Source: Candidatus Heimdallarchaeota archaeon | Lineage (GTDB): Archaea > Asgardarchaeota > Heimdallarchaeia > JABLTI01 | Reading direction: 5' to 3' | Assembly: GCA_018238155.1 (NCBI GenBank) | Contig: JABCTZ010000025.1 | Span: forward strand, 1 to 64,000 | Length of the DNA: 64,000 nucleotides | In this document: positions 1 through 64,000 of the stretch, one piece after another | Layout of the letters: each line of letters starts with the position of its first letter | Numbering within the stretch: position 1 is the stretch's first letter | Position numbers and translations under genes: made by a program | The notes under the pieces: model-generated | Seen by the model: the letters and a program-made list of their open reading frames with translations, nothing else | Databases searched by the model: none | Told to the model about the DNA's origin: nothing

Positions 1-145
1 ATCCCCTTTCATAGCATTTTGTGCAGAAGTTGTTACTATTGGTATTGCTAAAAAAACGATCATAATAAATACCATTAACCCTGCTTTCTTTCCAAATTCT
101 TTCCAAATTCTTTCCAAATTCTTTCCACTCCTCTAAATAATTCAA
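1..145 (-). CDS. 5' end of a paralog of the 1836..3539 secreted protein (runs off window start); 11-bp tandem repeat near its start
   Basis: Nt 1-220 is near-identical to 3418-3613. One frame reads GKKAGLMVFIMIVFLAIPIVTTSAQNAMKGD. Two extra CTTTCCAAATT units (22 bp) put the TTG at 145 out of frame; an internal TTG or ATG is in frame. Confidence 0.7.
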   Translation of the reverse strand, partial: MNYLEEWKEFGKNLERIWKESRVNGIYYDRFFSNTNSNNFCTKCYERG

Positions 146-444
146 TAAAAAGAACTATTCAATAGATACAATGTGAAGATACAATAATAAATATTTCTGA
201 ATAAAAAAATTATGTCGGAGAAAAAATAAAAAAAAATCGAAATCTCATCCATTCATTTTTTTCTGTTATCAAATAGTTTTCTTATTTTTGACAAATAAAT
301 TACTCCTCGAATTTTCTCAGTATACTTTATTTTGCAGTATGACAATATACTATTATATTTAAAATTTAATTGAAGCTGAATATCTGTTGTTTATTAATAC
401 GTTTTATCATTATAATGATAATCGGTTATTTTATATAGATGAAT

Positions 445-525
445 GATATATTTTTAAAAAACTTAATTAACTTTTTAAACATCCTCGAATACCGTCGAAA
501 AATCGACGAGGATTTCGTGCATTTT
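445..525 (-). repeat. Dispersed ~80-90 bp intergenic repeat, copy A, with CGTCGA-N4-TCGACG palindrome (493-508)
   Basis: Reverse complement aligns by eye with 7415-7485 (cgaaatcctcgtcgatttttcgacg...tgtttaaaaagttaattaa vs cgaaattctcgtcgatttatcgacg...tgtataaaaagttagttaa). Confidence 0.7.
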
Positions 526-10423: not shown

Positions 10424-11647
10424 ATGTCTAAACCAAAATTAGAATCAAAAGTAATTGTCTTAGGATTATCACAGTCAGGGAAAACATCAATACGACAAGT
10501 CATATTTGAAGGATTTGCACCGGATTCAACTGCTCTAAATCCTGCAACGGTAAGAATAAACAGAAAATTGTTTAGTTTAGCTGGAGGAGGTATAAATCTG
10601 TTTGATATCGGGGGTCAAACATCATATCTCAATGAAGTTTTTGATCAATACAAAGAAAGAACCTTTACTGATGTAAAAGCAGCCATTTTTGTTGTTGATG
10701 TTTCTGATGCCGCAAATATTATGCGTTCAAAGTATTATTTTGATTTAACGCTCAAAAATCTTGCATTATTAAGTAAAAAGTCGCGTATCTACATTTTTGC
10801 TCATAAAATGGACGTAGTCCAACTGAATAAAAGAGCAGTAATGGTTGAGTCAATAGGTGAAATTTTTGAAACAGACAATTATGACAATGTAAGCATTTAT
10901 GGAACGTCTATCTTTGATCAAACAATTTGGGATGCAATGCAAAAGGTTCTTTCATTTGTTTATCCTAGAGATGATAGTAAAACAAAGAGTATCAAAGATA
11001 TTGTAGGAAAATTCTCATTAGAATTTCTAGCTCTTTCAACTTCACAAGGATTGGTTCTTTATTCCGAACCCGAAGTTGATACCGGAGTTAATTATTCTAG
11101 ATTGAAAAATGAGATAACAAAAGCTTATTTTCCAAATAGTTATTTGAATCAAGCAATATTTAGTATTGGGGGATTTAACGCTTTTATGAAAGAATTAGAT
11201 GAAAACTTAGTTATAACAACAGTATTCGCATCAGATCATACAATACTTCAATCTCAAAAATCCTTTACTCAGTTATCTGAACAAATTAGAACATTATTCA
11301 AGCCAGATGAACTTTTAGGTCGAGCTAAAATTAAAATGAAAACAAATTTAGAGGAACATCTTAAGAAGAATGGTTTAAAGAATGTTCAAGACCTTGATAG
11401 AAAAATTGATGCAAAAATAAGTATCAAGTGTGATGTTTGTGGTAAACAAATACAAAAATCGTTATTGGATGTTGCACTAGAAAATTCAGAGCAAATAGAA
11501 AGAGGTATGAAAATTTCTGCTGGTTTTGGAGTTTCTACAATTGAAATGTATCCGCTACACGATTGTATTGAAGGTATACGTGAAATACCAGTAATATTAG
11601 ATGGTAATTTAGAATATCGTCGATATGATAAAAGCAGACCAATCTAA
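10424..11647 (+). CDS. Rag/Gtr-type small GTPase + roadblock-like domain + C-terminal Cys/His (zinc-binding-like) domain
   Basis: G1 GLSQSGKTS, G2 PAT, G3 DIGGQ, G4 HKMD, G5 TSIFD; LEFLALSTSQGLVLYS roadblock-like; CDVC...HDC. Confidence 0.88.
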   Translation: MSKPKLESKVIVLGLSQSGKTSIRQVIFEGFAPDSTALNPATVRINRKLFSLAGGGINLFDIGGQTSYLNEVFDQYKERTFTDVKAAIFVVDVSDAANIMRSKYYFDLTLKNLALLSKKSRIYIFAHKMDVVQLNKRAVMVESIGEIFETDNYDNVSIYGTSIFDQTIWDAMQKVLSFVYPRDDSKTKSIKDIVGKFSLEFLALSTSQGLVLYSEPEVDTGVNYSRLKNEITKAYFPNSYLNQAIFSIGGFNAFMKELDENLVITTVFASDHTILQSQKSFTQLSEQIRTLFKPDELLGRAKIKMKTNLEEHLKKNGLKNVQDLDRKIDAKISIKCDVCGKQIQKSLLDVALENSEQIERGMKISAGFGVSTIEMYPLHDCIEGIREIPVILDGNLEYRRYDKSRPI

Positions 11648-11719: not shown

Positions 11720-13465
11720 TTATTGTTCCTTATTTTCTTCGGAAGATTTTTGTTGCACTAAAAATTCTACTAGTCTTTTTACATCACTCTTTGAAAGAGT
11801 GAGTTTTTCTTCTGAATCTCCTTCTAAATTTGAAGCTAATAATTCAATCTGTTTTACATTGTATCTTTTTCTCTCTTCTTTCAAACGGTCCATGAAACCC
11901 TTTTTCACTGGTTTTAAGATTTTATCTGTTTTTAGAACCGCTTCTTTTACTTCCTCTTCAATTGCTATTTTGTGCTCATCAGGTTTATCTGTAACAAGTT
12001 CTTGAATGGGTTCTTCTACTACTACAGTTTCATTAATTTCAGCTATTGATTCTGTAACAGGCAGACTAATTTTCTCTTGTACTTCTGTTGGTGTTTCAGT
12101 CACTAGGGGAGCTATCGGTCCAGTTTTTGGTTTTGGTTCATCTAAATGTACTTGTATAGGTTCTGTTGGAGTGCTTTTGAGCTCATCCTTTAGTTTATTT
12201 AAGAATGTGAAACTACTCGTCTCAGCTACGACTTCAGCTTGTGCTACTTTTAGTTTCGGTATTTTCTTATCAGCTTTCGATTTAGGTGCTTTAACAGTAA
12301 CTTCCTTAGCTTCAGAAGGAACAGCAGGTAGATTAATGTTATCTATGGGAGCTTGCGGTGTTTCATCAGTAGATTGAGCAAATTTACGAATTAATTCATA
12401 AAATATCCTAGTTTTATCTTCGGTAATTGCTGAAAATGAAGTAATGAGTAAAATATTTTTATCAAGATTGAAAACCATTGCATTAACTTTGTTATTTGAA
12501 GAAGTAATTATTGATGCAGTAGTGCTTTCACTTATTTCTTTTTTCTCTTTTATAATCGTTTTAAATTCTTGTAATGCAGAAATATAATCTATTGATTTCT
12601 CAGAACTCACAGCTCCTTTTGAGGAGGTTCCAACAACAGGTGAAAAAGTTTCACGGTCAATTAAAACGATTTCAACAATATCATATTCAGATAGATCAAA
12701 ATTAATAGCCATTTTACCAAAGGTGGGTAATGTTGCTTGTGGTTCTGGATTAAGAAACTCCATTAATTGTTTAATTCTGGGATCTTCTTCATGTTCCATA
12801 ACGTAGCTCTGAAATTCATCACTTTCCTCTATTTTTTGACCTATATTGGTAATTAATTCAAAACGTTTTGAGTTCATATTCACTTCATTCATTAAGGTAA
12901 AAATCAATTCTTTCAAGCTCTCGGCATAATAAATACTGGAGGGTTCGAATCGAATATTGTACTTGTTCTCATCAAAGGTATCAGCTACGTGTCCGAGTAA
13001 TGGCACTAATTCTTCTGGAGGAATTAAATCTACTTTATGGCAAAGAACTGTAATAATACCTTCGGGATTTTCTTTCTTAAATTGGCGAATAGTAAAACTA
13101 AATCTTCGTTCCGATTCCTCAAATAGATTTGGACGAGTCATATCGATTATCCAAAAGAGAATTTTTACATTGGAGAAAACTAGATGCCTAAAATGAGTTA
13201 CAGCTTCGTTCCAGTAATTTTCTTGTCCACCAGAATCGATAATTAAATTGGTCTTTTCTTCATCTATATATTGACGTTCATAGTGGACTGTAGCCATGTA
13301 ATCTTCAACTTCACCAGGTTTTTTACCAAAAAAGACTACATCTTTGATAGCAGTTTTTCCTGCTTGTTGAAGACCCATGAAAAGTATTTTATCTTCTACT
13401 TTTACATCAGAGTCATCAGATTTTAATTCGTCAAATAGATAAGACATTAACATCACTAGTTTCAA
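11720..13465 (-). CDS. Rag/Gtr-type small GTPase + roadblock-like domain + long Pro/Glu/Lys-rich disordered tail; likely start ATG 13447
   Basis: G1 GLQQAGKTA, G2 MAT, G3 DSGGQ, G4 HKVD, G5 SSIY; IVEIVLIDRETFSPVVGT roadblock-like segment. Confidence 0.88.
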   Translation of the reverse strand: MKLVMLMSYLFDELKSDDSDVKVEDKILFMGLQQAGKTAIKDVVFFGKKPGEVEDYMATVHYERQYIDEEKTNLIIDSGGQENYWNEAVTHFRHLVFSNVKILFWIIDMTRPNLFEESERRFSFTIRQFKKENPEGIITVLCHKVDLIPPEELVPLLGHVADTFDENKYNIRFEPSSIYYAESLKELIFTLMNEVNMNSKRFELITNIGQKIEESDEFQSYVMEHEEDPRIKQLMEFLNPEPQATLPTFGKMAINFDLSEYDIVEIVLIDRETFSPVVGTSSKGAVSSEKSIDYISALQEFKTIIKEKKEISESTTASIITSSNNKVNAMVFNLDKNILLITSFSAITEDKTRIFYELIRKFAQSTDETPQAPIDNINLPAVPSEAKEVTVKAPKSKADKKIPKLKVAQAEVVAETSSFTFLNKLKDELKSTPTEPIQVHLDEPKPKTGPIAPLVTETPTEVQEKISLPVTESIAEINETVVVEEPIQELVTDKPDEHKIAIEEEVKEAVLKTDKILKPVKKGFMDRLKEERKRYNVKQIELLASNLEGDSEEKLTLSKSDVKRLVEFLVQQKSSEENKEQ

Positions 13466-51407: not shown

Positions 51408-54400
51408 CTATTTTTGATTTTTAGTATTTAACTTAAAGGAAATTGTTGCACCCTTATTGACTTTTCCATCTCCCCAAACTTGACCATTATGTCGACTGAT
51501 AATTCTTTGAACAATAGCCAAACCGACACCAGTACCAGTAAACTCATCAAATTGGTGAAGTCTCTGAAATAATGTAAAAAGTTTATCAGAATAAGACATT
51601 TCAAATCCTGCGCCATTATCTTGAATATAGTAAATTGTTTCTTTATCAATTATCTTTGAACCAAATTTAATTTTAGCATTGGCTTTTTTTGACGTGAATT
51701 TCCAAGCATTTCCTAGAAGATTTTCTAATACAGTTCGCATTAAAACGGGATCACAAAATGCAGTAATATTTCTCTCAATTTTTACTGTGACTTTTCTATT
51801 TGGATTTTGATTTTTGTGGCTTTCAATAATACTCTCTGCAATTTCACTCAAGTTTATCTCCTTAAAAGAAATAGCTACATTGGTTATTCTTGATAAAGCT
51901 AAAATATCATCAATTAAATTGCCCATTTTAATACTGGCCTTTCGAATTCTATGAAGGTAATTTTTCCCTTCATCATCTAAATTCTCTGCAAAATCCTCTA
52001 ATAATGCTTGACTAAAACCATTTATACTCCGTAAAGGTGATCGTAAATCATGAGAAATGGAATATGAAAAAGCTTCCAATTCTTTATTCATACGTTCAAG
52101 TTGTTCAGTTCGTTCAGCTACACGATGTTCAAGTTCTTCATTCAATTTCTTAAGTTCATCTTGAGCAAGCTTTCTCTCTGTAATATCATTACATGCCATG
52201 AAAACTGTTCTTGAATTATCATCCAAGAATTCCATAAATAAACTATATCTGATATACTTCCTTTCACCATTTTTTTGAATAATCCAATATTCGAAATTTG
52301 AATTACTGATCTGATTTGTAATTATATTTTGCAATTCTTCTCTAAATTCTTTAATGCTCACAGGATCAACAAAATCAAAAGGACCACTTTTATAGAACTC
52401 TTCTAAAGGCAAACCATAGATCTGAGCAATTTGTTCATTAGCATAGATCATCTGATTATTCTCAATAATAGTGATGCCATCTAATATTGTATCAACAGTC
52501 CTCTTAAACCTCTGTTGACTAGATTCTAATTGTTCTAAAACTCTGATATGTTCAATTGCAGAAGCAAAAATATCAATTATTGACTCAAAAGATTTAATAT
52601 CATATTCATTTAGTCTAGTTTCCTTTTTGGAACCAATTTGAATTGTACCTAGAAGCTCATTTTTAGAATTTAAAATAGGATAGAAAATATAAACAATATA
52701 CTTGTGATTTTTTATCAATTTGTTTTCCTTGATGATTGGGTCATTTTGTGCATCCAAAGAAAATAATTTTACTTTTTCACGAATAAATCTCGCTACAGGA
52801 AAATTTGACTCTTTTATATTTATAGGCAATAACAAATAATACTCGGAATCAGGTATCCCATATATCGAAAGTGCTTCCAATAATCCTGTATTCTCATCAC
52901 AACATCTTATTGTCCCCGCTTGAAGGTCAAAGATTTTAATTATCCCTTCTAACACTTGTTGACTCATCTCTTTAACATTGACATTGTTTGCAGTTGCTTC
53001 AGATATTATTGTTAATAATTTTCTTTCACGTTCTAGTGCAAATTGAACTTGTTTTTCCTTCGTGATTTCAATCATCATGGCACCGAAGAGAAAATCATTC
53101 TCTATCTGAATTGGAGTGAGATTTATTTGTGCCCATTTGTTGTTTCCAGTCTTTGTTTCTACTTCAAATTCATAAACAATTTCTCCTTGTGTAGAAGAAA
53201 TGTTAGTAAAATTTATTGCTTCCAGAAAGTCAGAAAATTGATTTGGATGAATTTTCTTGAAAAATTCACTTATTGATAAATTTAAAATCTCATCTAATGA
53301 ATATTCAGAAATTTCCTCTGCTCTTTTATTTGCAAAAAGAATTTTACCTGTAGAATTAAAGAGAAATACTCCAGCAAGTGATTGTTCTGCAAAAGCTCTG
53401 AATTTCTGCTCAGTTTCTTTTCGGGCTTCATCAATATGAAATTTTTCTATAATATTAGCTATTGTTCTAGCAATTGTTTCAAATACAGTTTGGTATTCAT
53501 CTGACATTTCTAATTCTTTCATTGAACCAAATTGGAATATGCCTAACAAATCACCATTTGCTTTTAACATAGGCCAAGTAATAATAGCTTTCACATTAAA
53601 TTTGTGTATCATTGTCATACTTTTACTATCTAGCTTTAATTGTTTGACATCCGGAGCAAAAATAGCTTTTTTTGTACGAGCTACATAGGTATTCGTGTAA
53701 ACAGGATTGTCAATTGATATTGGATTTAATTCATAATTAAGAAAATTCTCCGCTTTTATATTTCTAATTGGTATCAACATTCTAGTTTCTTCATCATATA
53801 ATCTTATAATTCCATAATTAAAACCAAGTGCTTCAGATATATCATTAGCAATTAAAACACACAATTCCGATACAGTAGTTGCAACTGTTGTAGCTTTAGT
53901 AATAATCCGAAAAGCTTTACGTTCATTGTTTAGTGAATCTTGAGCTATTTTCCGTTTCGTTATATCTAAAACTATTCCATGATAATTGACAATATTCCTT
54001 TGATTGTCTCTTTTTATGGAAGTAAAATCAAGTGTCCAGCGAACTTTGCCTGATTTTGTTAATATTCTATATTCTTGTGTGTAGTTGAGACATTTTGAAT
54101 CTTGACTATATTTCTCTACTTCATCATCTACTCTTTTAATATCATCAGGATGGATAATATCACAATAAGAAATATCTCCAGAGTAGAAATCTTCAGGAGA
54201 GTAACCAAAAATTTCGATGTTATCAGAAACATATTCAACTGGTGAACCAATTTCATTTTTCCAAAGAAAGACAATTGCAGGACTTAGATTAATAATTTTA
54301 TTGAGTTCTTTTTGTTCTTGAGATGTTTTTTCAAGCAATAGTTCTATATTATATCTTTCTAAAATTGTTCGGAGCATCAATATTATTGATTCGATGAAAG

Positions 54401-55319
54401 TCCTATCATTTTCACTAAATTCTTTGGTTCTTTCTGAAGATAATTGTAGTATTCCGAACAACTTCATGTTTTTATCAAAAATAGGATATGAAATTAGTGA
54501 ACGAATATTGTATGATTCAAATTTTGACCAAAATTGTTTAAGCGTTTGTATTGTAAAAATATCTTCAGCAAATATAGGTTCTTTATGTTTAACAACATAA
54601 TTTACAAAGTTGTCAGGTTCTTCTGTAGAAATTGAGAATTTATCACCCTCTTTTGTAACAAGAGAACCAGCTGTAGCAATTCTATCAAATGTTTTTTCTT
54701 CTTCATTATGGAGTATTAAAGACCCAAAATCAAAATGTAACTTTTCCAATAAATTTTTTAGTACCTCTGCAGTATATTCAGCTATATCTTGCTTTGGAAT
54801 TGCTGTTACTGCTAGATTTTGCAAAATTTCTCTTTCGAGTTCAAGTTCTTTTTCTGCAAGTTTCCTTTGTGTTACATCTCTAATAGAGCTTTGGATAATC
54901 TTCTTGGTAGTTGTAGGATCATCAAAAATTGACAAATTAATTTCTGTGTGAATCAATTCACCGGATTTTTTTTGAAAAATGTTTTCATAAATTGGCAGTT
55001 TTTTTCCTGACTTTAGCTCAGAAAATTTGCTAGTTATATCATTATTCTCTGATTTAGCAAATAATTCTCTTACTTTTTTCGAGTACAATTCTTCTAAACT
55101 ATAACCTAAAAGTTCTGTTGCCTTCTTATTAATTAAAATAAACCGTTCACTCTCAGCATCGATCCAAAAAATTGCATCATTAGTCATTTCAAAGAGAGCT
55201 TCAAACCGAATTTTTATTGTTTTTGTTTCATTAGATTCATCATCTGAAATAACAATTTGTGCCCCAAAATGAGTTTTTGTTTTATTCTCTTCTTTTTTGT
55301 TTAATTTCTTATCAGGCAC
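51408..55319 (-). CDS. Multi-PAS/GAF sensor histidine kinase (Cph1-type transmitter)
   Basis: Alternating PAS and GAF domains; FSYSISHDLRSPL, NLLGNAWKF, DNGAGF, FQRLH, GTGVGL. Confidence 0.93.
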   Translation of the reverse strand: MPDKKLNKKEENKTKTHFGAQIVISDDESNETKTIKIRFEALFEMTNDAIFWIDAESERFILINKKATELLGYSLEELYSKKVRELFAKSENNDITSKFSELKSGKKLPIYENIFQKKSGELIHTEINLSIFDDPTTTKKIIQSSIRDVTQRKLAEKELELEREILQNLAVTAIPKQDIAEYTAEVLKNLLEKLHFDFGSLILHNEEEKTFDRIATAGSLVTKEGDKFSISTEEPDNFVNYVVKHKEPIFAEDIFTIQTLKQFWSKFESYNIRSLISYPIFDKNMKLFGILQLSSERTKEFSENDRTFIESIILMLRTILERYNIELLLEKTSQEQKELNKIINLSPAIVFLWKNEIGSPVEYVSDNIEIFGYSPEDFYSGDISYCDIIHPDDIKRVDDEVEKYSQDSKCLNYTQEYRILTKSGKVRWTLDFTSIKRDNQRNIVNYHGIVLDITKRKIAQDSLNNERKAFRIITKATTVATTVSELCVLIANDISEALGFNYGIIRLYDEETRMLIPIRNIKAENFLNYELNPISIDNPVYTNTYVARTKKAIFAPDVKQLKLDSKSMTMIHKFNVKAIITWPMLKANGDLLGIFQFGSMKELEMSDEYQTVFETIARTIANIIEKFHIDEARKETEQKFRAFAEQSLAGVFLFNSTGKILFANKRAEEISEYSLDEILNLSISEFFKKIHPNQFSDFLEAINFTNISSTQGEIVYEFEVETKTGNNKWAQINLTPIQIENDFLFGAMMIEITKEKQVQFALERERKLLTIISEATANNVNVKEMSQQVLEGIIKIFDLQAGTIRCCDENTGLLEALSIYGIPDSEYYLLLPINIKESNFPVARFIREKVKLFSLDAQNDPIIKENKLIKNHKYIVYIFYPILNSKNELLGTIQIGSKKETRLNEYDIKSFESIIDIFASAIEHIRVLEQLESSQQRFKRTVDTILDGITIIENNQMIYANEQIAQIYGLPLEEFYKSGPFDFVDPVSIKEFREELQNIITNQISNSNFEYWIIQKNGERKYIRYSLFMEFLDDNSRTVFMACNDITERKLAQDELKKLNEELEHRVAERTEQLERMNKELEAFSYSISHDLRSPLRSINGFSQALLEDFAENLDDEGKNYLHRIRKASIKMGNLIDDILALSRITNVAISFKEINLSEIAESIIESHKNQNPNRKVTVKIERNITAFCDPVLMRTVLENLLGNAWKFTSKKANAKIKFGSKIIDKETIYYIQDNGAGFEMSYSDKLFTLFQRLHQFDEFTGTGVGLAIVQRIISRHNGQVWGDGKVNKGATISFKLNTKNQK

Positions 55320-55565: not shown

Positions 55566-56105
55566 CTAGTTCTCTTCTTCACATGTTGAATACAAGAGTA
55601 ACCTGGATTCACCATCTGTTTTGTTTAAAACTAAACCATGAAACATGAAAGTATTTGATACTATTCTAGTTTCAGGACTAACTTCTTGTAATAATTTATC
55701 TTCTAATTTATTATTCGTGCTTTGTAAAAGATAACAAAATATAACATCAGCATCACTCAAATCTTGTTTGAAGAAGTCACCATAAATTATTCGTATCTTC
55801 TTTCGCAAACCTAAGATTGTTATAAGAAATTGGCACCATAAGAAACGCATTAAATCAATTTCAATACCAACAGACCGAGCACCAAATTTACGAGTAGCTA
55901 TAATTAATACTCGTCCATCACCACACCCTAAATCGTAGACCAATTCACCTGGTTGTACATTTGCTATTTCAAGCATTTGTTGAATTTTTTTCCTTTTAGT
56001 TGGTAACCAAGGTGCACCCTTAATAGTTGGAAAAGAAACAGTGAAAACAATCATGAAACCAGTAATAATGATACCCAATAGTATTAATGGTGTAATATCA
56101 GTCAT
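55566..56105 (-). CDS. TM-anchored class I methyltransferase (FAM173/archaeal lysine methyltransferase-like)
   Basis: N-terminal TM, PWLPT, YDLGCGDGR, GIEID, RIVSNTF. Confidence 0.8.
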   Translation of the reverse strand: MTDITPLILLGIIITGFMIVFTVSFPTIKGAPWLPTKRKKIQQMLEIANVQPGELVYDLGCGDGRVLIIATRKFGARSVGIEIDLMRFLWCQFLITILGLRKKIRIIYGDFFKQDLSDADVIFCYLLQSTNNKLEDKLLQEVSPETRIVSNTFMFHGLVLNKTDGESRLLLYSTCEEEN

Positions 56106-56384: not shown

Positions 56385-57473
56385 ATGTCTTTAGATGATG
56401 ATTATTTAATTGAGCGATTTACTCTAAAAGATTCAGATATTGGTACACTTGCGAAATTATTAACAGGTGCATTTCAAGAAGATGAAGTGGCAAAAAAAGA
56501 GGGGGCTGTTGCAGATCTCCAAGATGAAAATTTCAAACTAATCTTTGGTGCTCCATCAGTAGATAAAGAAATTTTTATTCGAGCAATATATAAACCTACT
56601 AACGAAATAGTTGGATTCCTTGGATCAATTCATAAGAGCTTATCAATTGATGGTAAAATCTACAAAGTTTCCTTACCAGCTTGGTTATCTGTTCATCACG
56701 AACATAGAAGAAAAGGTTTAGCAACTTTTTTGGGGACCAAATTAGTGGAAGTAATTAGAGAAAAAGGATATGATGCAAGTGTCTTCTTTCACGATGCAAG
56801 TCAACATGGTAAAGTAGCATCAGCTGCAGTTGCTCGTAACGCAGGAATTCCAATGATAGAATTAGCAATGATGAATAAATTCATTGTAAGAGGTTATGAT
56901 GTCGATGAAGCTGCAAAAGCACTTAAAACAAACTGGATACAAAAACTCTTTTTTAAATCAAAAGAACGAATTGGTAAAGTAAAGAGCAATAAAGTTCGAC
57001 TTTACAAACCAGAAGACATTGATAAAATCTTTGAGCTCTCAACAGAACTTTCTAAGAAAAATCAAATAAGTATAATACAAGTACATGAAGATTTGAAATG
57101 GAAATTAGCTGATCCTCAAGTATTGTGTGTAGTTTATGAAGATGAAAATGGAGAAGCTAAAGGATTTATTAATGCCTGGGAGTTTCTCTTGTCAGGTTTT
57201 GGCAATAATGTCAAGTTTGGATGGTTAGATACTATCCACACATACAATCTAACAAATCAAGAAGTTAAAGATCTAGCCAATTTTCTTGGACTTGAAGCAA
57301 CTAAACGTGGTTGGAAAGGATTACAAACACCGTATATACCCTATTTTAATTCTAAACCATTTAGACAAGTCAACTTCATCTTCTTCCCAAAGAAAGTTGG
57401 TTTATATCTAGCAAATATCAATAATATTCCAATTCCAGAGAAAATTGAATCAGTGTATTTTGAATGGAGATGA
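56385..57473 (+). CDS. Tandem GNAT acyltransferase, N-myristoyltransferase-like
   Basis: IVGFLGSI...[14 protein letters not shown] in lobe 1; VRLYKPEDI...ENGEAKGFI in lobe 2. Confidence 0.75.
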   Translation: [362 protein letters not shown]

Positions 57474-57580: not shown

Positions 57581-58729
57581 TCAAGAATATTTCTTTGTTT
57601 TTAGAGTGACAGTGAAGATTGTTCCGGTCGTTTTTGATGATTCAAAAGTCACTTTTCCATTTAGATATTCTTCAACAAGAATTTTAACACTGTATGTGCC
57701 TAATCCGCGACCAACACCCTTAGTTGAAAAAGACCGTTGGAATATTTGACTTTTAATTTCCTCATTCATAACAAAATTATTCTTCACCCAGTATGCTATG
57801 CCATCTTTTGTTTCTTTACAACCTATATGAACTATTTCATTTTCTTTACTTGCTTCTAAAGCATTTGTTAGTAAATTGAACAATACTCGTCGCATTAACC
57901 TTGGATCAGTTGTTATTTCTTTCTTTACACATGTTTCATCATGAATAATTTGTTTATTTTGTGAAATATCTAATGGAAGAATAGAATTTATTGTTGAATT
58001 TATTAGCTCAATCGTTTGAGTCTTAACAAATTTGATTTCTAATTCATTGCGTTCCATTCTTAATAGATCTCTTTGAACAGCTACTTCCTCAATAATAATT
58101 GCTATTTGATTTTTTAGTTTTTGAAAAAGTCTTTTTTGTTCGTTATTTAATCCTTCTTGTGGAAAAAGATCAGCTCTAGACTCAAGAGACCAAGTTGAAT
58201 TTATTAAATCATGAATAAAAATTCTTTCCAACTGCTCTTGTTTTTTCAGAGTTCCAATATCAGTCATAACAACCAGAGTAAATTTCTGACCCTCATAATC
58301 GAAAGGACTTGCTTTTACGTTTAAATTTAAGGCGGTAATTTTGCCATTTACAGAAGAAGTAATTCTAGATTCACTTTCTACTGTAGTATTGGTATTTTGA
58401 CTTGTATATACAGCATATAATGCATCACAATATTTACAATTTCGTCCAGTACCACAACCATTTTTTGTATCATTAGCATGGATACAATGAATCAATTCCC
58501 CTGGTCTTTGCCCTATTGCTTCTTGAAAATCATTTAAACCTACTTTATCAACAAAAATATCGTTTGCATAAATTACTTGTCGATGTTCATTAACAACAGC
58601 AACCATATTTGATAGTGAATTTAGAATTTTGGCAGCGTACGCTAAATTAATAATTTTATTAGATTGTCGTGTAACATCTTCTTTACTTAACCTTTCTGGG
58701 GATGCAAAGAATGTTTCTTTGGGGGACAT
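57581..58729 (-). CDS. Sensor histidine kinase with Cys-containing PAS-like domain
   Basis: RPGELIHC...GCGTGRNCKYC; HDLIN; NLLTNALEA; FSTKGVGRGLG. Confidence 0.88.
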   Translation of the reverse strand: MSPKETFFASPERLSKEDVTRQSNKIINLAYAAKILNSLSNMVAVVNEHRQVIYANDIFVDKVGLNDFQEAIGQRPGELIHCIHANDTKNGCGTGRNCKYCDALYAVYTSQNTNTTVESESRITSSVNGKITALNLNVKASPFDYEGQKFTLVVMTDIGTLKKQEQLERIFIHDLINSTWSLESRADLFPQEGLNNEQKRLFQKLKNQIAIIIEEVAVQRDLLRMERNELEIKFVKTQTIELINSTINSILPLDISQNKQIIHDETCVKKEITTDPRLMRRVLFNLLTNALEASKENEIVHIGCKETKDGIAYWVKNNFVMNEEIKSQIFQRSFSTKGVGRGLGTYSVKILVEEYLNGKVTFESSKTTGTIFTVTLKTKKYS

Positions 58730-61207: not shown

Positions 61208-62575
61208 CTAGCCAACCTTTGGTGATTCTTTACCATTTTTTTCAATATTTGATGATTCTTTTGTACCATTTTCTACTTCTGATAATTCATCCAAATCATA
61301 TTCCACTACAGGTAAAACAAGTGCTTTCGGTGACCGGAATGCAAAACGAAGAGCAAATGGTGTCATCACAATTGTTACAAATACTAATAATACTGCCATC
61401 GAAAAGATGCTTTGATCAAAAATTCCTTGAAGTAATCCGATCTCCGCAATTATAAGAACTATTTCTGCACGTGGTAACATACCTACAGCAATTTTTGCTG
61501 AATCTCTTGGTTTCATTTTGACAATTGATGCCCCTGTAAACGTACCTAAACCTTTTGCTATGATTGTAATAGGAATAGCAAGGAGGAGAATTGGCGAAAA
61601 TGCAGAGAAATCAAACAAGAATGTGGCACCTACACCGAAGAAAAACAATGGTAAGAATACCCCTTCACCCATTTTGATGAATGTTTCCTTTATTTCACCT
61701 ACTAGTACTCTATTTTTCTGTAAGGAAAGTCCAAATAAAAAGGCGATAATTACTCCAGAAATGCCTAAAAATTCTGCAAGAAAAACTAACAGAACCAGTA
61801 ACCCAAAAATTATTCCTAATGATAAAAACTTAGTTGAGGAATTTGAGAAAATCCTAAATCTGTTCTCCAAGAATTTCAAAAGTTTAGGTATCAAAACAAC
61901 TACAATAACAATCAATAAAAACATAATAACGAGGTCAATTAATAATGTGAAATACCATGCCAAAGTTACAGTAGTTTCTGGTCCAAGGAATAAATTAAGA
62001 TACCAAACTTCACTTCCTGCTTTAGGGAATAGAACACTAGCAAAGATTAAGACAAGAAATAAAACAATAAAATCATCGAAAATCGCAGAAGATAGCAAAA
62101 TTTCTCCTTCAGTTGTATTCAATTTACCAACGTCACTTAACGTTCTAACGGTGACACCAATACTTGTTGCGGTTAGCATTGTACCGAAGAATATTGCTAC
62201 TGGGAGGCTCTGATCAAATATTAGGAATGCTGCAAGAAAGCCACCTATTAATGATATAAATACACCAACAAGAGAGATTACCAGGCTCTTTTTCCCAGTT
62301 TTTCTAAGACTCTTAGTATTGATCTCTAAACCGATAATAAACAGTAAAATAATGATTCCAAGTTGAGAAAATTGTTTCAAAACTTCATTATCTACAAATA
62401 AAGTTGGATTTATACCAACCATTCCTAGCAATGGTCCACCGAATATCATTCCTGCTAGTAATTCTCCAAGGATAGATGAAAGCTTAATTCTTTCAAAAAT
62501 TTCACCAAGGATTCTTGCAGAGAGCAATGCAACACCTAAATACATAAGAATATTTATTGTATCAGTTGCTACCAT
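61208..62575 (-). CDS. CPA2 cation:proton antiporter (NapA/KefB-like)
   Basis: Many TM helices; LGELLAGMIFG, LLFIIGLE, TATSIG, AIFDD, MLPRAE. Confidence 0.92.
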   Translation of the reverse strand: MVATDTINILMYLGVALLSARILGEIFERIKLSSILGELLAGMIFGGPLLGMVGINPTLFVDNEVLKQFSQLGIIILLFIIGLEINTKSLRKTGKKSLVISLVGVFISLIGGFLAAFLIFDQSLPVAIFFGTMLTATSIGVTVRTLSDVGKLNTTEGEILLSSAIFDDFIVLFLVLIFASVLFPKAGSEVWYLNLFLGPETTVTLAWYFTLLIDLVIMFLLIVIVVVLIPKLLKFLENRFRIFSNSSTKFLSLGIIFGLLVLLVFLAEFLGISGVIIAFLFGLSLQKNRVLVGEIKETFIKMGEGVFLPLFFFGVGATFLFDFSAFSPILLLAIPITIIAKGLGTFTGASIVKMKPRDSAKIAVGMLPRAEIVLIIAEIGLLQGIFDQSIFSMAVLLVFVTIVMTPFALRFAFRSPKALVLPVVEYDLDELSEVENGTKESSNIEKNGKESPKVG

Positions 62576-63999
62576 TAAGTTCCCTCTCTTTTGTTATTTT
62601 CCTCTTTTATTTCAGCAGCAGCTTCTTCAGCAGCTTCTTCAGCAGCTTCTTCAGCAGCTTCTTCAGCAGCTTCTTCAGCTGCTCTTTCTTTAGCATCAGC
62701 AGCTTCTTCAGCAGCTTCTTCAGCTGCTCTTTCTTTAGCATCAGCAGCTTCTTCTGCAGCTTCTTCAGCTGCTCTTTCTTTTTCAGCAGCTTTTGCAGCT
62801 GCTCTTTCTTTAGCAGCAGCTTCTTTTGTGATGGCATCTTTTGCAGCAGCTTCAGCAGCTTTTTCAGCTGCTCTTTCTTTTACAGCAGCTTCTTTTGCAG
62901 CAGCTTCAGCAGCTTTTTCAGCTATAATAGCTTCTGCTTCTTTTGCATCTGCATTTTCTTTTGCAGTTTTTTCCTTTGTATGTTTTGCAGTAGCTTTTGC
63001 AGCTGCTCTTTCTTTGGTAGCAGCTTCTTTTGCAGCTTTTGCAGCTGCTCTTTCTTTAGTAGCAGCTTCTTTTGCAGCTTTTACAGCAGCAGCTTTTTCT
63101 TTTGCAGCAGCTTCAGCAGCTTTTACAACAGCTTTTTCTTTAGTAGTAGCTTCTCTTGCAGCTTCTTCAGTAGCTTTTACAGCTGCTTTTTCTTTTGCAG
63201 CAGCTTCTTTGGCAGCTTCTTCGGCAGCATTTACAGCTGCTTTTTCTTTTACAGCTGCTTCTTCGGCAGCTGCTTTTTCTTTTATAACAGCAGCTTCTGC
63301 GATAGCTTCTTTTTCAGCAGCTTCTTTTGCAGCAGCTGCTTCTATTGCTGCTTTATCTTTTGCAGCAGCTGCTTCTATTGCTGCTTTTGCAGCAGCTTTT
63401 TCTTTTGCAATAGCTGCTTCTACAATAGCTTCTTTGGCAGCTGCTACAGCAGCTTTTTCAGCTTCTTTTGCAGCAACTTCAGCAGCTTTTTTAGCTTTAA
63501 TAGCTTCCGCAGCTTTTGTATCTGCATTTTGTTTTGCAATAGCTTCTTTTGCAGCAGCTGCTTCTATTGCTGCTTTATCTTTGGCAGCAGATGCTTCTTC
63601 AGCAGCTCTTTCTTTGGCAGCAGATGCCTCTTCAGCAGCTCTTTCTTTGGCAGCAGCTTTTTCTTTTGCAATAGCTACCTCTTCAGCTGCTTTTGCAATA
63701 GCTCTTTCTTTTGCAATAGCTGCTTCTGCAGCTGCTTTTTCTTTAGCAGTAGCTTCTTTAGCCGCAGCTTCTTCTGCAGCTTTTGTAGCAGCTCTTTCTT
63801 TAGTAGCCGCTTCTTTTGCGGCTTCTTCTGCGGCTTTTACAGCTGCTTTTTCTTTTGCAGCAGCTTCTTTTGCAGCTTCTTCCGCAGCTTTTACAGCTGC
63901 TTTTTCTTTTGCAACAACTTCCGCAGCTTCTTCTGCAGCTCTTTCTTTAGTAGCCGCTTCTTTTGCAGCTTCTTCTGCGGCTCTTTCTTTTACAGCCGC
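62575..63999 (-). CDS. 3' part (>=474 aa) of an Ala/Glu/Lys-rich helical repeat protein running off the window end
   Basis: Open frame AAVKERAAEEAAKEAATKERAAEEAA...EEAAAEIKEENNKREGT*. Its TAA (62575-62577) overlaps the antiporter ATG (TAATG). Confidence 0.85.
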   Translation of the reverse strand, partial: AAVKERAAEEAAKEAATKERAAEEAAEVVAKEKAAVKAAEEAAKEAAAKEKAAVKAAEEAAKEAATKERAATKAAEEAAAKEATAKEKAAAEAAIAKERAIAKAAEEVAIAKEKAAAKERAAEEASAAKERAAEEASAAKDKAAIEAAAAKEAIAKQNADTKAAEAIKAKKAAEVAAKEAEKAAVAAAKEAIVEAAIAKEKAAAKAAIEAAAAKDKAAIEAAAAKEAAEKEAIAEAAVIKEKAAAEEAAVKEKAAVNAAEEAAKEAAAKEKAAVKATEEAAREATTKEKAVVKAAEAAAKEKAAAVKAAKEAATKERAAAKAAKEAATKERAAAKATAKHTKEKTAKENADAKEAEAIIAEKAAEAAAKEAAVKERAAEKAAEAAAKDAITKEAAAKERAAAKAAEKERAAEEAAEEAADAKERAAEEAAEEAADAKERAAEEAAEEAAEEAAEEAAEEAAAEIKEENNKREGT

Positions 64000-64000
64000 T

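Follow-up and report, generated by a model that had tools for sequence, protein, structure and literature searches.

A whole-length homolog of eukaryotic N-myristoyltransferase encoded by a Candidatus Heimdallarchaeota archaeon

The 64,000-nucleotide window analysed here (positions 1 to 64,000 of contig JABCTZ010000025.1, assembly GCA_018238155.1; contig C8 of genome G000, a 4.08-Mb assembly of 46 contigs that is ~91% complete) carries at 56385..57473 (+) a complete open reading frame (ORF) with an ATG start, coding for 362 amino acids (aa) plus stop, and the family of this protein is a genuine whole-length homolog of N-myristoyltransferase (NMT, EC 2.3.1.97). It is the only NMT relative that we detected in these archaea, and the window protein is not a member of the eukaryote-type NMT. 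An initial annotation had called the product a tandem GNAT protein that might be a prokaryotic relative of NMT, leaving the acyl donor open, and this was supported, because profile, profile-profile and fold comparison all gave NMT as the closest characterised family, and both the model and the hhalign alignment were collinear with NMT across the two halves. We tentatively read the protein, with a confidence that falls a little short of even, as a cytosolic acyl-coenzyme A (acyl-CoA)-dependent N-acyltransferase of NMT-type build that would use C-terminal-carboxylate catalysis, with a protein or peptide alpha-amine as the likely acceptor and no classical Gly-2 myristoylome. According to PMC12219266 (2025), NMTs had previously been described from eukaryotes alone; by searching AlphaFold DB, the same work found NMT-type double-GNAT models in archaea and bacteria, and it lists a few archaeal entries without analysing them further. 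Our literature search for an Asgard NMT homolog found no dedicated paper, and the passing mention in PMC12219266 was the only one.

Homology to NMT in sequence and predicted fold

The single protein was searched against all PDB sequences with HMMER, and the significant matches were NMTs only, the best being P. vivax NMT (E 8e-5), with window residues 56-291 aligned to its residues 92-315. The IVGFLG region stood opposite LIGFIS / VNFLCVHKTLRSKRLA, and the ENGEAKGFI region opposite MRLMKKKDVEGVH...ENGKIKDMI. The three blocks that had been quoted in the initial annotation as collinear with NMT over the whole length were all reproduced in the HMMER and hhalign alignments. When a profile of 32 homologs was searched against PDB, the 35 best distinct sequences were all NMT (E 1e-11 to 1e-4); the family profile matched both NMT halves, each separately, and its first non-NMT match was AAC(3)-I at E 0.028, with Eis at 0.25. 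An exhaustive search of 1.84 billion representative proteins with the family profile retrieved bona fide NMTs at E 1e-9 to 1e-5 (this status being assigned by Pfam, with both NMT domains at 157-218 bits), and aligning the family to these NMTs with hhalign gave 99.5% probability and E 3e-23, with 309 columns in collinear order (residues 16-349). The sequence identity between the window protein and NMT was 15-19%. The match is far beyond chance.

Pfam analysis of the window protein gave Acetyltransf_9 as the strongest single match (8e-10), and the NMT N-terminal domain PF01233 matched residues 7-119 with 27.1 bits, which is only marginally over the curated cut-off of 25. In a six-frame search, PF01233 reached 31.6 bits for the window gene; its paralog scored 32 bits with this model. 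Bona fide NMTs scored 164-218 bits with PF01233 and 157-204 bits with PF02799 (NMT_C). An NCBIfam scan of the window protein gave nothing meaningful (best E 0.11).

The AlphaFold2 model made from the family alignment had a mean predicted local distance difference test score of 93 and a predicted template modelling (TM) score of 0.89. In a Foldseek search against PDB, all 50 of the 50 best matches were NMT (E ~1e-21, TM ~0.75, ~355 columns). The Foldseek-independent comparison was done with VIA-align on 48,161 representative chains, and yeast NMT reached Z 30.6 with a root-mean-square deviation (rmsd) of 2.9 A over 335 residues, followed by Cryptosporidium NMT at Z 29.1, the NMTs ranging from 2.9 to 3.0 A over 327-335 residues. 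The scores of other tandem GNATs were Z 22.1 for MAB_4324, 20.2 for Eis (rmsd 5.9 A), 18.7 for the clavulanate-pathway protein, 15.0 for HisAT/NAT16 (9EMD), 14.6 for MshD and 11.6 for Ta0821 (3C26), and FemX / FemA gave about 13. The model superposed with residues 2..362 on yeast NMT 74..455, ending at the last residue of both, and the alignments to MAB_4324, 2WPW, HisAT and MshD ended at model residues 343-347, short of the tail. A comparison of the HHpred/Foldseek type with NMT, Eis and FemX, and a look at the C-terminus in a model, had been proposed in the initial annotation; NMT came out ahead by wide margins, and the predicted C-terminus superposed on that of NMT.

Active-site landmarks and a fixed C-terminus

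The N-terminal GNAT half (~residues 1-170; 56385..56894, +), to which the PF01233 and Acetyltransf_9 matches belong, is the predicted acyl-CoA-binding domain, with strands in the model at residues 7-12, 64-98, 131-137 and 157-170. Residues 96-113 (56670..56723, +) aligned residue for residue with NMT and would be the counterpart of its oxyanion strand and CoA loop: A-W-L-S-V-H stood opposite N-F-L-C-V-H and R-R-K-G-L-A opposite R-S-K-R-L-A, the NMT stretch being N-F-L-C-V-H-K-x-L-R-S-K-R-L-A. The GNAT CoA-pyrophosphate loop is intact (R108-x-x-G111-x-A113); in this segment P98 and H107 are invariant, and W100, V103, G111 and A113 are more than 90% conserved. Because the R-x-x-G-x-A loop is kept, we infer a CoA-thioester donor. 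The alignment also showed a family-specific motif, H-[D/E]-x-x-Q-H-G, at residues 136-142 (56790..56810, +), in which the acidic residue 137 is more than 90% conserved and G142 is invariant.

The C-terminal pseudo-GNAT half (~residues 204-344; 56994..57416, +) was aligned with NMT by HMMER and hhalign and lies below Pfam NMT_C detection. Conservation within the family peaks in this half, at residues 264-285 (57174..57239, +), with the block A-W-E-F-x-L-[AS]-G-F-G-x(5)-G-W-L-D-x-x-H, which is the presumed acceptor site and in which W265, G271, G273, G279, W280 and H285 are invariant. A second signature, Q-T-P-Y-I-P-Y-F at residues 314-321 (57324..57347, +), is invariant in the family and does not occur in NMT. 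The family is under strong purifying conservation, with a mean column identity of 58% across proteins labelled Heimdall, Gerd, Thor and Loki. These conserved blocks are specific to the family, which suggests a specific acceptor differing from that of NMT.

The C-terminal tail (residues 345-362; 57417..57470, +) ends in Y-F-E-W-R-COOH and superposed on the NMT tail in the model. All 32 of the 32 aligned homologs stop at one column, with R362 invariant and W361 more than 90% conserved; among full-length members the terminal residue is Arg in 87 of 89, and the last two are Trp-Arg in 84 of 89. Of 23 non-redundant members, 18 have a tail of 18 residues past the last long strand, and of 23 NMTs, 19 have one of 16 residues; the median in the rest of the prokaryotic superfamily was also 18. 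Eukaryotic NMTs (for example yeast Nmt1p 2P6E, human NMT1 and P. vivax 2YNC) are like the window protein in being collinear tandem GNATs over ~310-335 residues, in the aligned oxyanion strand and CoA loop, in the fixed-length tail and in a PF01233 score over the cut-off. They differ in that the window family has its own acceptor-site motifs (QTPYIPYF; GFG...GWLD..H) and a Trp-Arg terminus instead of the hydrophobic-Gln/Leu end of NMT. The catalytic base of NMT is its C-terminal carboxylate (PMC12219266), and the fixed Trp-Arg terminus echoes this arrangement. The carboxylate of the window protein would likewise reach the active site, since the terminus is fixed and the model superposes on NMT from end to end.

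In the mechanism that we propose, the N-terminal GNAT domain would bind acyl-CoA through the R-x-x-G-x-A loop and a putative oxyanion-hole strand, and the C-terminal pseudo-GNAT domain would build the highly conserved acceptor pocket. The fixed-length tail would then fold back, so that the carboxylate of the terminal Trp-Arg could act as the catalytic base on a primary amine of the acceptor, which would most likely be the alpha-amine at the N-terminus of one specific protein or peptide rather than a classical Gly-2 myristoylome. Both the CoA-thioester donor and the terminal-carboxylate catalysis are what we infer from these landmarks, and any assignment of Arf-like GTPases with Met-Ser-Phe or Met-Gly N-termini as the acceptor, or of an acyl chain length, is speculative.

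A wider NMT-like superfamily and its relation to eukaryotic NMT

An exhaustive search beyond the core family retrieved many proteins of ~330-410 aa that formed a dozen further clades, one large clade being bacterial (Deltaproteobacteria, Bradymonadales, Chloroflexi, Acidobacteria and Aminicenantes). The core family is one part of a larger NMT-like superfamily that is mostly bacterial. The prokaryotic NMT-like tandem GNATs (from Aminicenantota, Myxococcota, Acidobacteriota, Chloroflexi, Desulfobacterota and others) share with the window protein the length of ~330-410 aa, the fold and a fixed tail, often Y-x-D-x-R (hhalign E 1e-26 to 1e-41), but they form separate clades without QTPYIPYF and the Trp-Arg end, and some of their genes lie in clusters for fatty-acyl biosynthesis, unlike the isolated window gene. 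Among ESM-Atlas neighbours, found by language-model features plus structure, bacterial clusters reached TM 0.80-0.87 and eukaryotic NMT clusters TM 0.80. The initial annotation had named affinity to generic bacterial tandem GNATs as the result that would speak against an NMT relative; the nearest proteins overall are indeed uncharacterised bacterial and archaeal ones, with an Atlas TM of 0.85-0.87 vs 0.80 for NMT, but these relatives are NMT-like and not generic.

A phylogeny, which the initial annotation had also proposed, was calculated by maximum likelihood. The core family was monophyletic (98-100), and so were the eukaryotic and giant-virus NMTs (100), which excluded the core family; the two formed separate clades on a backbone that was a polytomy. 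When the core family and NMT were constrained as one clade, the approximately unbiased test under LG+G4 did not reject the resulting tree, which scored slightly above the free tree (p-AU 0.54, delta lnL +1.4). In profile-profile comparison the core family had the highest score to NMT of 14 prokaryotic clades (174), the next two clades reaching 165 and 163 and the large bacterial clade 120. A sister relationship to eukaryotic NMT is therefore allowed by the sequence data, and ancestry to NMT is possible, but the wide bacterial distribution, the patchy occurrence in Asgard archaea and the unsettled tree call for caution against reading the family as the direct ancestor of NMT. No bona fide NMT (PF02799 over the cut-off) was found in 301 sampled genomes of the window's phylum. 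The homolog also offers a way to ask whether the unusual C-terminal-carboxylate catalysis of NMT was already present in the ancestor of a broad family of prokaryotic enzymes.

Two of the relative clades gave a gene context, each from one contig. In clade c121 (L003:924-9098) a same-strand cluster contains a ketoacyl synthase, 3-hydroxyacyl-CoA dehydrogenase, enoyl-CoA hydratase and acyl carrier protein, and continues with a shikimate-DH/aminotransferase fusion, a polysaccharide deacetylase and then the NMT-like GNAT, which resembles a pathway for an N-acyl lipid or a lipopeptide. A scan of genome contigs with the c121 profile gave no confirmed relative. In clade c119 the NMT-like gene adjoins an AMP-binding acyl-activating enzyme. 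A further candidate for a closer NMT relative was the GNAT protein of genome family f14, which has Acetyltransf_9 together with weak, sub-threshold NMT_C matches of 22-26 bits (L011:2019-3284, +; L012:1503-2774, -). It was rejected as a different protein of 421-423 aa, whose best solved match is the Eis-type 2I00.

Distribution and paralogs of the gene

A word-index search gave 82 homologs of ~360-365 aa that were 36-88% identical; the named ones are nearly all labelled Heimdallarchaeota, Gerdarchaeota, Thorarchaeota, Lokiarchaeota or 'Asgard group', and NCBI labels them GNAT family N-acetyltransferase. Among the 301 sampled genomes the gene was present in 43, with a very patchy distribution: it was found in 10/10 genomes of the window's own family (f1), in 24/29 of f2 (same class as the window) and in 7/7 of f27 (another class), in 1/76 of f11, and in none of the genomes of f14 (0/68), f4 (0/21), f17 (0/19) and f3 (0/11). 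The window protein carries the marks of the Trp-Arg-terminal subfamily (QTPYIPYF, W-E-F-x-L-A-G-F-G, terminal [DEY]-W-R, 359-365 aa), and searching the species representatives of GTDB for QTPYIPYF and WEFxLAGFG gave 66 loci, mostly in Ca. Heimdallarchaeota metagenome-assembled genomes (MAGs) and in Promethearchaeota of the Loki group, Ca. Harpocratesius repetitus among them.

Copies in bacterial MAGs are 33-46% identical and lie on very large contigs (L032, L049, L055, L058, L060, L069, L071 and others). The copies of Smithella (160-kb contig), a delta-proteobacterium (5.7-Mb contig), Leptospirales (330-kb contig), Fusibacter (1.25-Mb contig), Neomarinimicrobiota and Syntrophaceae all end in D-W-R. 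In the outgroup-rooted subfamily tree several Heimdall-group paralog clades were basal, and the bacterial and Loki-group copies shared one nested clade with weak support (81). The nesting of the bacterial copies in archaeal diversity would fit transfer out of Asgard archaea. The family, which had been annotated as archaeal, is thus Asgard-centred, but it is not purely archaeal, since bacterial copies exist.

There are at least two paralogs per genome. The second paralog in G000 (contig C21; L001:760-1851, -) codes for 363 aa, is 48% identical and ends in Y-F-D-W-R, and some Heimdall MAGs have at least three paralogs. The surroundings of this paralog are common to L001, L007 and L008, where a 420-aa radical-SAM gene and the NMT-like gene face two ABC exporters and PadR; the arrangement could be a module for peptide or small-molecule modification and export.

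Possible acceptors among Arf-like GTPases

The membrane traffic of eukaryotes depends centrally on the myristoylation of Arf-family GTPases, and Asgard archaea already have Arf-like GTPases. In G000 we found 43 small-GTPase matches, 14 of which were strongly Arf-like. At least seven of the Arf-like GTPases start with M-S-F-[LI]-x-x-L-F followed by basic residues, which matches the amphipathic helix of eukaryotic Arf in layout, except that residue 2 is Ser. One Arf-like protein of G000 starts with M-G-I-L-S-K-L-F-R-K at an internal ATG, and this Gly-2 protein is an ortholog conserved across the genus (M-G-[FI]-L-[SA]-[KR]-L-F). Example loci of these N-termini are C15:290052-290567, C39:62280-62786, C29:32667-33179 and C41:74765-75271 in G000, and L079:238-822 (-). 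As the initial annotation had noted, none of the GTPases in the window begins with Met-Gly: the ORF at 10427-10858 (+) starts with MSKPK... and that at 13025-13402 (-) with MLMSY....

The 301 genomes were searched with a calibrated DNA pattern, a narrow one, that combined the Arf-like N-terminus with the G-L-x-x-A-G-K P-loop. The Ser-2 N-terminus occurred in 13 genomes (5/10 of f1 without G000, 7/29 of f2, 0/7 of f27, elsewhere none) and the Gly-2 N-terminus in 7 genomes (5/10 of f1 without G000, 1/29 of f2, 0/7 of f27, elsewhere none), and reversed-pattern controls gave zero matches everywhere. The Arf-like N-termini were therefore seen only in f1 and f2, and the third of the enzyme-bearing families, f27, had none. 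Because f1 and f2 are closely related and the search pattern was narrow, we take this co-occurrence as a lead, not as evidence for a substrate. When the enzyme was modelled in a complex with CoA and the Arf-like GTPase of the Gly-2 type (residues 2-60), the score was 0.00, and this run, made without controls, speaks neither for nor against binding. Asgard Arfs have been described as having no recognisable myristoylation sites, with membrane binding that is independent of Gly-2 and of myristoylation (PMC11914678; bioRxiv 10.1101/2024.02.28.582541). The indirect evidence from G000 leans against classical Gly myristoylation. As a side observation, the MAG Ca. Heimdallarchaeota 12F4_9 (L018, JAHLVW010000083.1) encodes a family member ending in Y-F-I-L-R, and the same MAG is the source of the Gly-2 Arf 'Heim12F4_9-5' assayed in PMC11914678.

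Evidence against the proposed function and competing explanations

Several findings weigh against an NMT-type N-acyltransferase acting on a protein or peptide. In the protein itself, PF02799 (NMT_C) gave no match even at E <= 10; the first 45-70 residues of the NMT catalytic core are missing, hhalign pairing window residue 16 with residue 63 of a 396-aa NMT; the Asn that precedes the oxyanion strand of NMT is Ala or Ser in the window family; and H-[D/E]-x-x-Q-H-G opens a 17-residue insertion at the position of the Y-T-A-G loop of NMT. On the donor side, a search of the ~91% complete G000 found no acyl-CoA dehydrogenase and no enoyl-CoA hydratase, with one thiolase and three AMP-binding enzymes present, and as the search returned no genes of beta-oxidation, it is doubtful that the donor is long-chain. 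On the acceptor side, Gly is rarer at position 2 (3.2%) than in bulk (6.0%) among 3083 G000 ORFs of at least 120 aa, and the classical NMT motif fits only ~18 of these 3083 ORFs, several of them at internal Mets. Because two relative clades lie in fatty-acyl or small-molecule clusters, a small-molecule acceptor is favoured, at least there. In addition, the gene is disrupted in two closed Heimdallarchaeum-type genomes, Ca. Heimdallarchaeum aukensis CP084166.1 (L068, about 1,011,600-1,012,700) and G074 (C1:1138301-1141232), where one copy is interrupted by in-frame stops from codon 115 on and the other is split into two fragments, which means that the gene is dispensable in some lineages.

An N-acyltransferase of small molecules or peptide natural products, acting on the amino group of a metabolite, an amino acid or a ribosomal peptide as HisAT/NAT16 does with histidine, is an explanation that we regard as unlikely and still take seriously. 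It would account for the c121 gene standing in a fatty-acyl biosynthetic cluster with an aminotransferase fusion and a deacetylase, for the acyl-activating neighbour in c119, and for the radical-SAM, ABC exporter and PadR arrangement kept around the G000 paralog in three genomes. HisAT and Ta0821 are double GNATs with archaeal relatives that can bind long acyl chains, and HisAT acts on a free amino acid and accepts long acyl chains (PMC12219266). However, each cluster context comes from a single contig per clade, and the gene neighbourhood of the window subfamily, when compared, showed nothing conserved and no biosynthetic context. HisAT-type proteins reached only Z 15.0 vs 30.6 for NMT, with an alignment that ends near residue 347 without the tail; the HisAT type ends directly after the last strand and has a beta-hairpin Trp (PMC12219266), whereas the window protein has an NMT-type 18-residue tail. 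The very high conservation across classes and the several paralogs also fit a macromolecular acceptor. Distinctly less probable is an ordinary Eis/MshD-like tandem GNAT that transfers acetyl from acetyl-CoA to lysines or small amines, its NMT likeness reflecting shared double-GNAT ancestry. Eis, like NMT, puts its C-terminal carboxylate in the active site. The double-GNAT build, the Acetyltransf_9 match on the N-terminal half (the strongest in Pfam, from a family covering Eis-like proteins) and the NCBI name of the homologs all agree with this explanation, and the lack of long-chain acyl-CoA metabolism among the G000 genes found would favour acetyl-CoA. Against it, the profile E value was 1e-11 for NMT and 0.25 for Eis, a difference of 10 orders of magnitude; the fold comparison gave Z 14.6-22.1 for Eis, MAB_4324, MshD and the clavulanate-pathway GNATs vs 30.6 for NMT, with an rmsd of 5.9 A for Eis vs 2.9 A. 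Eis has a third, SCP2-like domain (~400 aa; 362 vs ~402 aa), but the window protein has two domains, and the true Eis-like proteins in f14 belong to a separate 421-aa family.

Two further explanations place the acceptor among the Arf-like GTPases. That the Trp-Arg family is the sister or progenitor of eukaryotic NMT and N-acylates the Ser or Gly N-terminus of the Arf-like helix (M-S-F-L-x-x-L-F / M-G-F-L-x-x-L-F) seems to us very unlikely as a whole; if it were true, N-terminal acylation of Arf-type membrane switches would be older than eukaryotes. Slightly more improbable still is a functional archaeal N-myristoyltransferase that attaches a long fatty acyl chain to the Gly of Arf-like GTPases and other proteins after Met removal. 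The whole-length homology to NMT and the same predicted C-terminal geometry are in its favour, and so are the 14 strongly Arf-like proteins of G000, the genus-conserved Gly-2 ortholog, the restriction of such N-termini to two Heimdall-group families that carry the enzyme, and the enzyme copy in MAG 12F4_9. But most Arf-like proteins in G000 start with Met-Ser-Phe and not Met-Gly, Gly-2 is depleted proteome-wide with few motif-fitting ORFs, f27 has the enzyme and none of these N-termini, and the co-occurrence is confounded by phylogeny. The beta-oxidation genes not found in G000, with only three AMP-binding enzymes, the unmatched NMT_C and the published work on Asgard Arfs cited above point the same way. 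The N-acyltransferase with a protein or peptide alpha-amine as acceptor is the reading that we tentatively keep, and this conserved, duplicated NMT homolog of Heimdall- and Loki-group archaea is a clonable candidate for asking whether N-terminal acylation machinery preceded eukaryogenesis.

Surroundings of the gene in the window

The NMT-like gene is isolated between genes on the opposite strand. Upstream are a 1303-aa multi-PAS/GAF histidine kinase (51408-55319, -) and a 179-aa N-terminally membrane-anchored class I methyltransferase with CMAS/DOT1/PrmA-like matches (55566-56105, -), and downstream a second histidine kinase (57581-58729, -) converges on it. The window is AT-rich (~30% GC), and an Rfam scan of it gave no RNA family. 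A search of sequencing runs found no RNA run and only one DNA run, for which the share of words was 0.05. At the end of the window, within an ORF on the minus strand that is open at the window end (62575-64000), the GC content jumps to 0.41 with a strong AT skew. This region is rich in imperfect tandem repeats of 12-78 nucleotides of the GCAGCTTCTTC type, which on the minus strand code for a long low-complexity protein rich in Ala, Glu and Lys.

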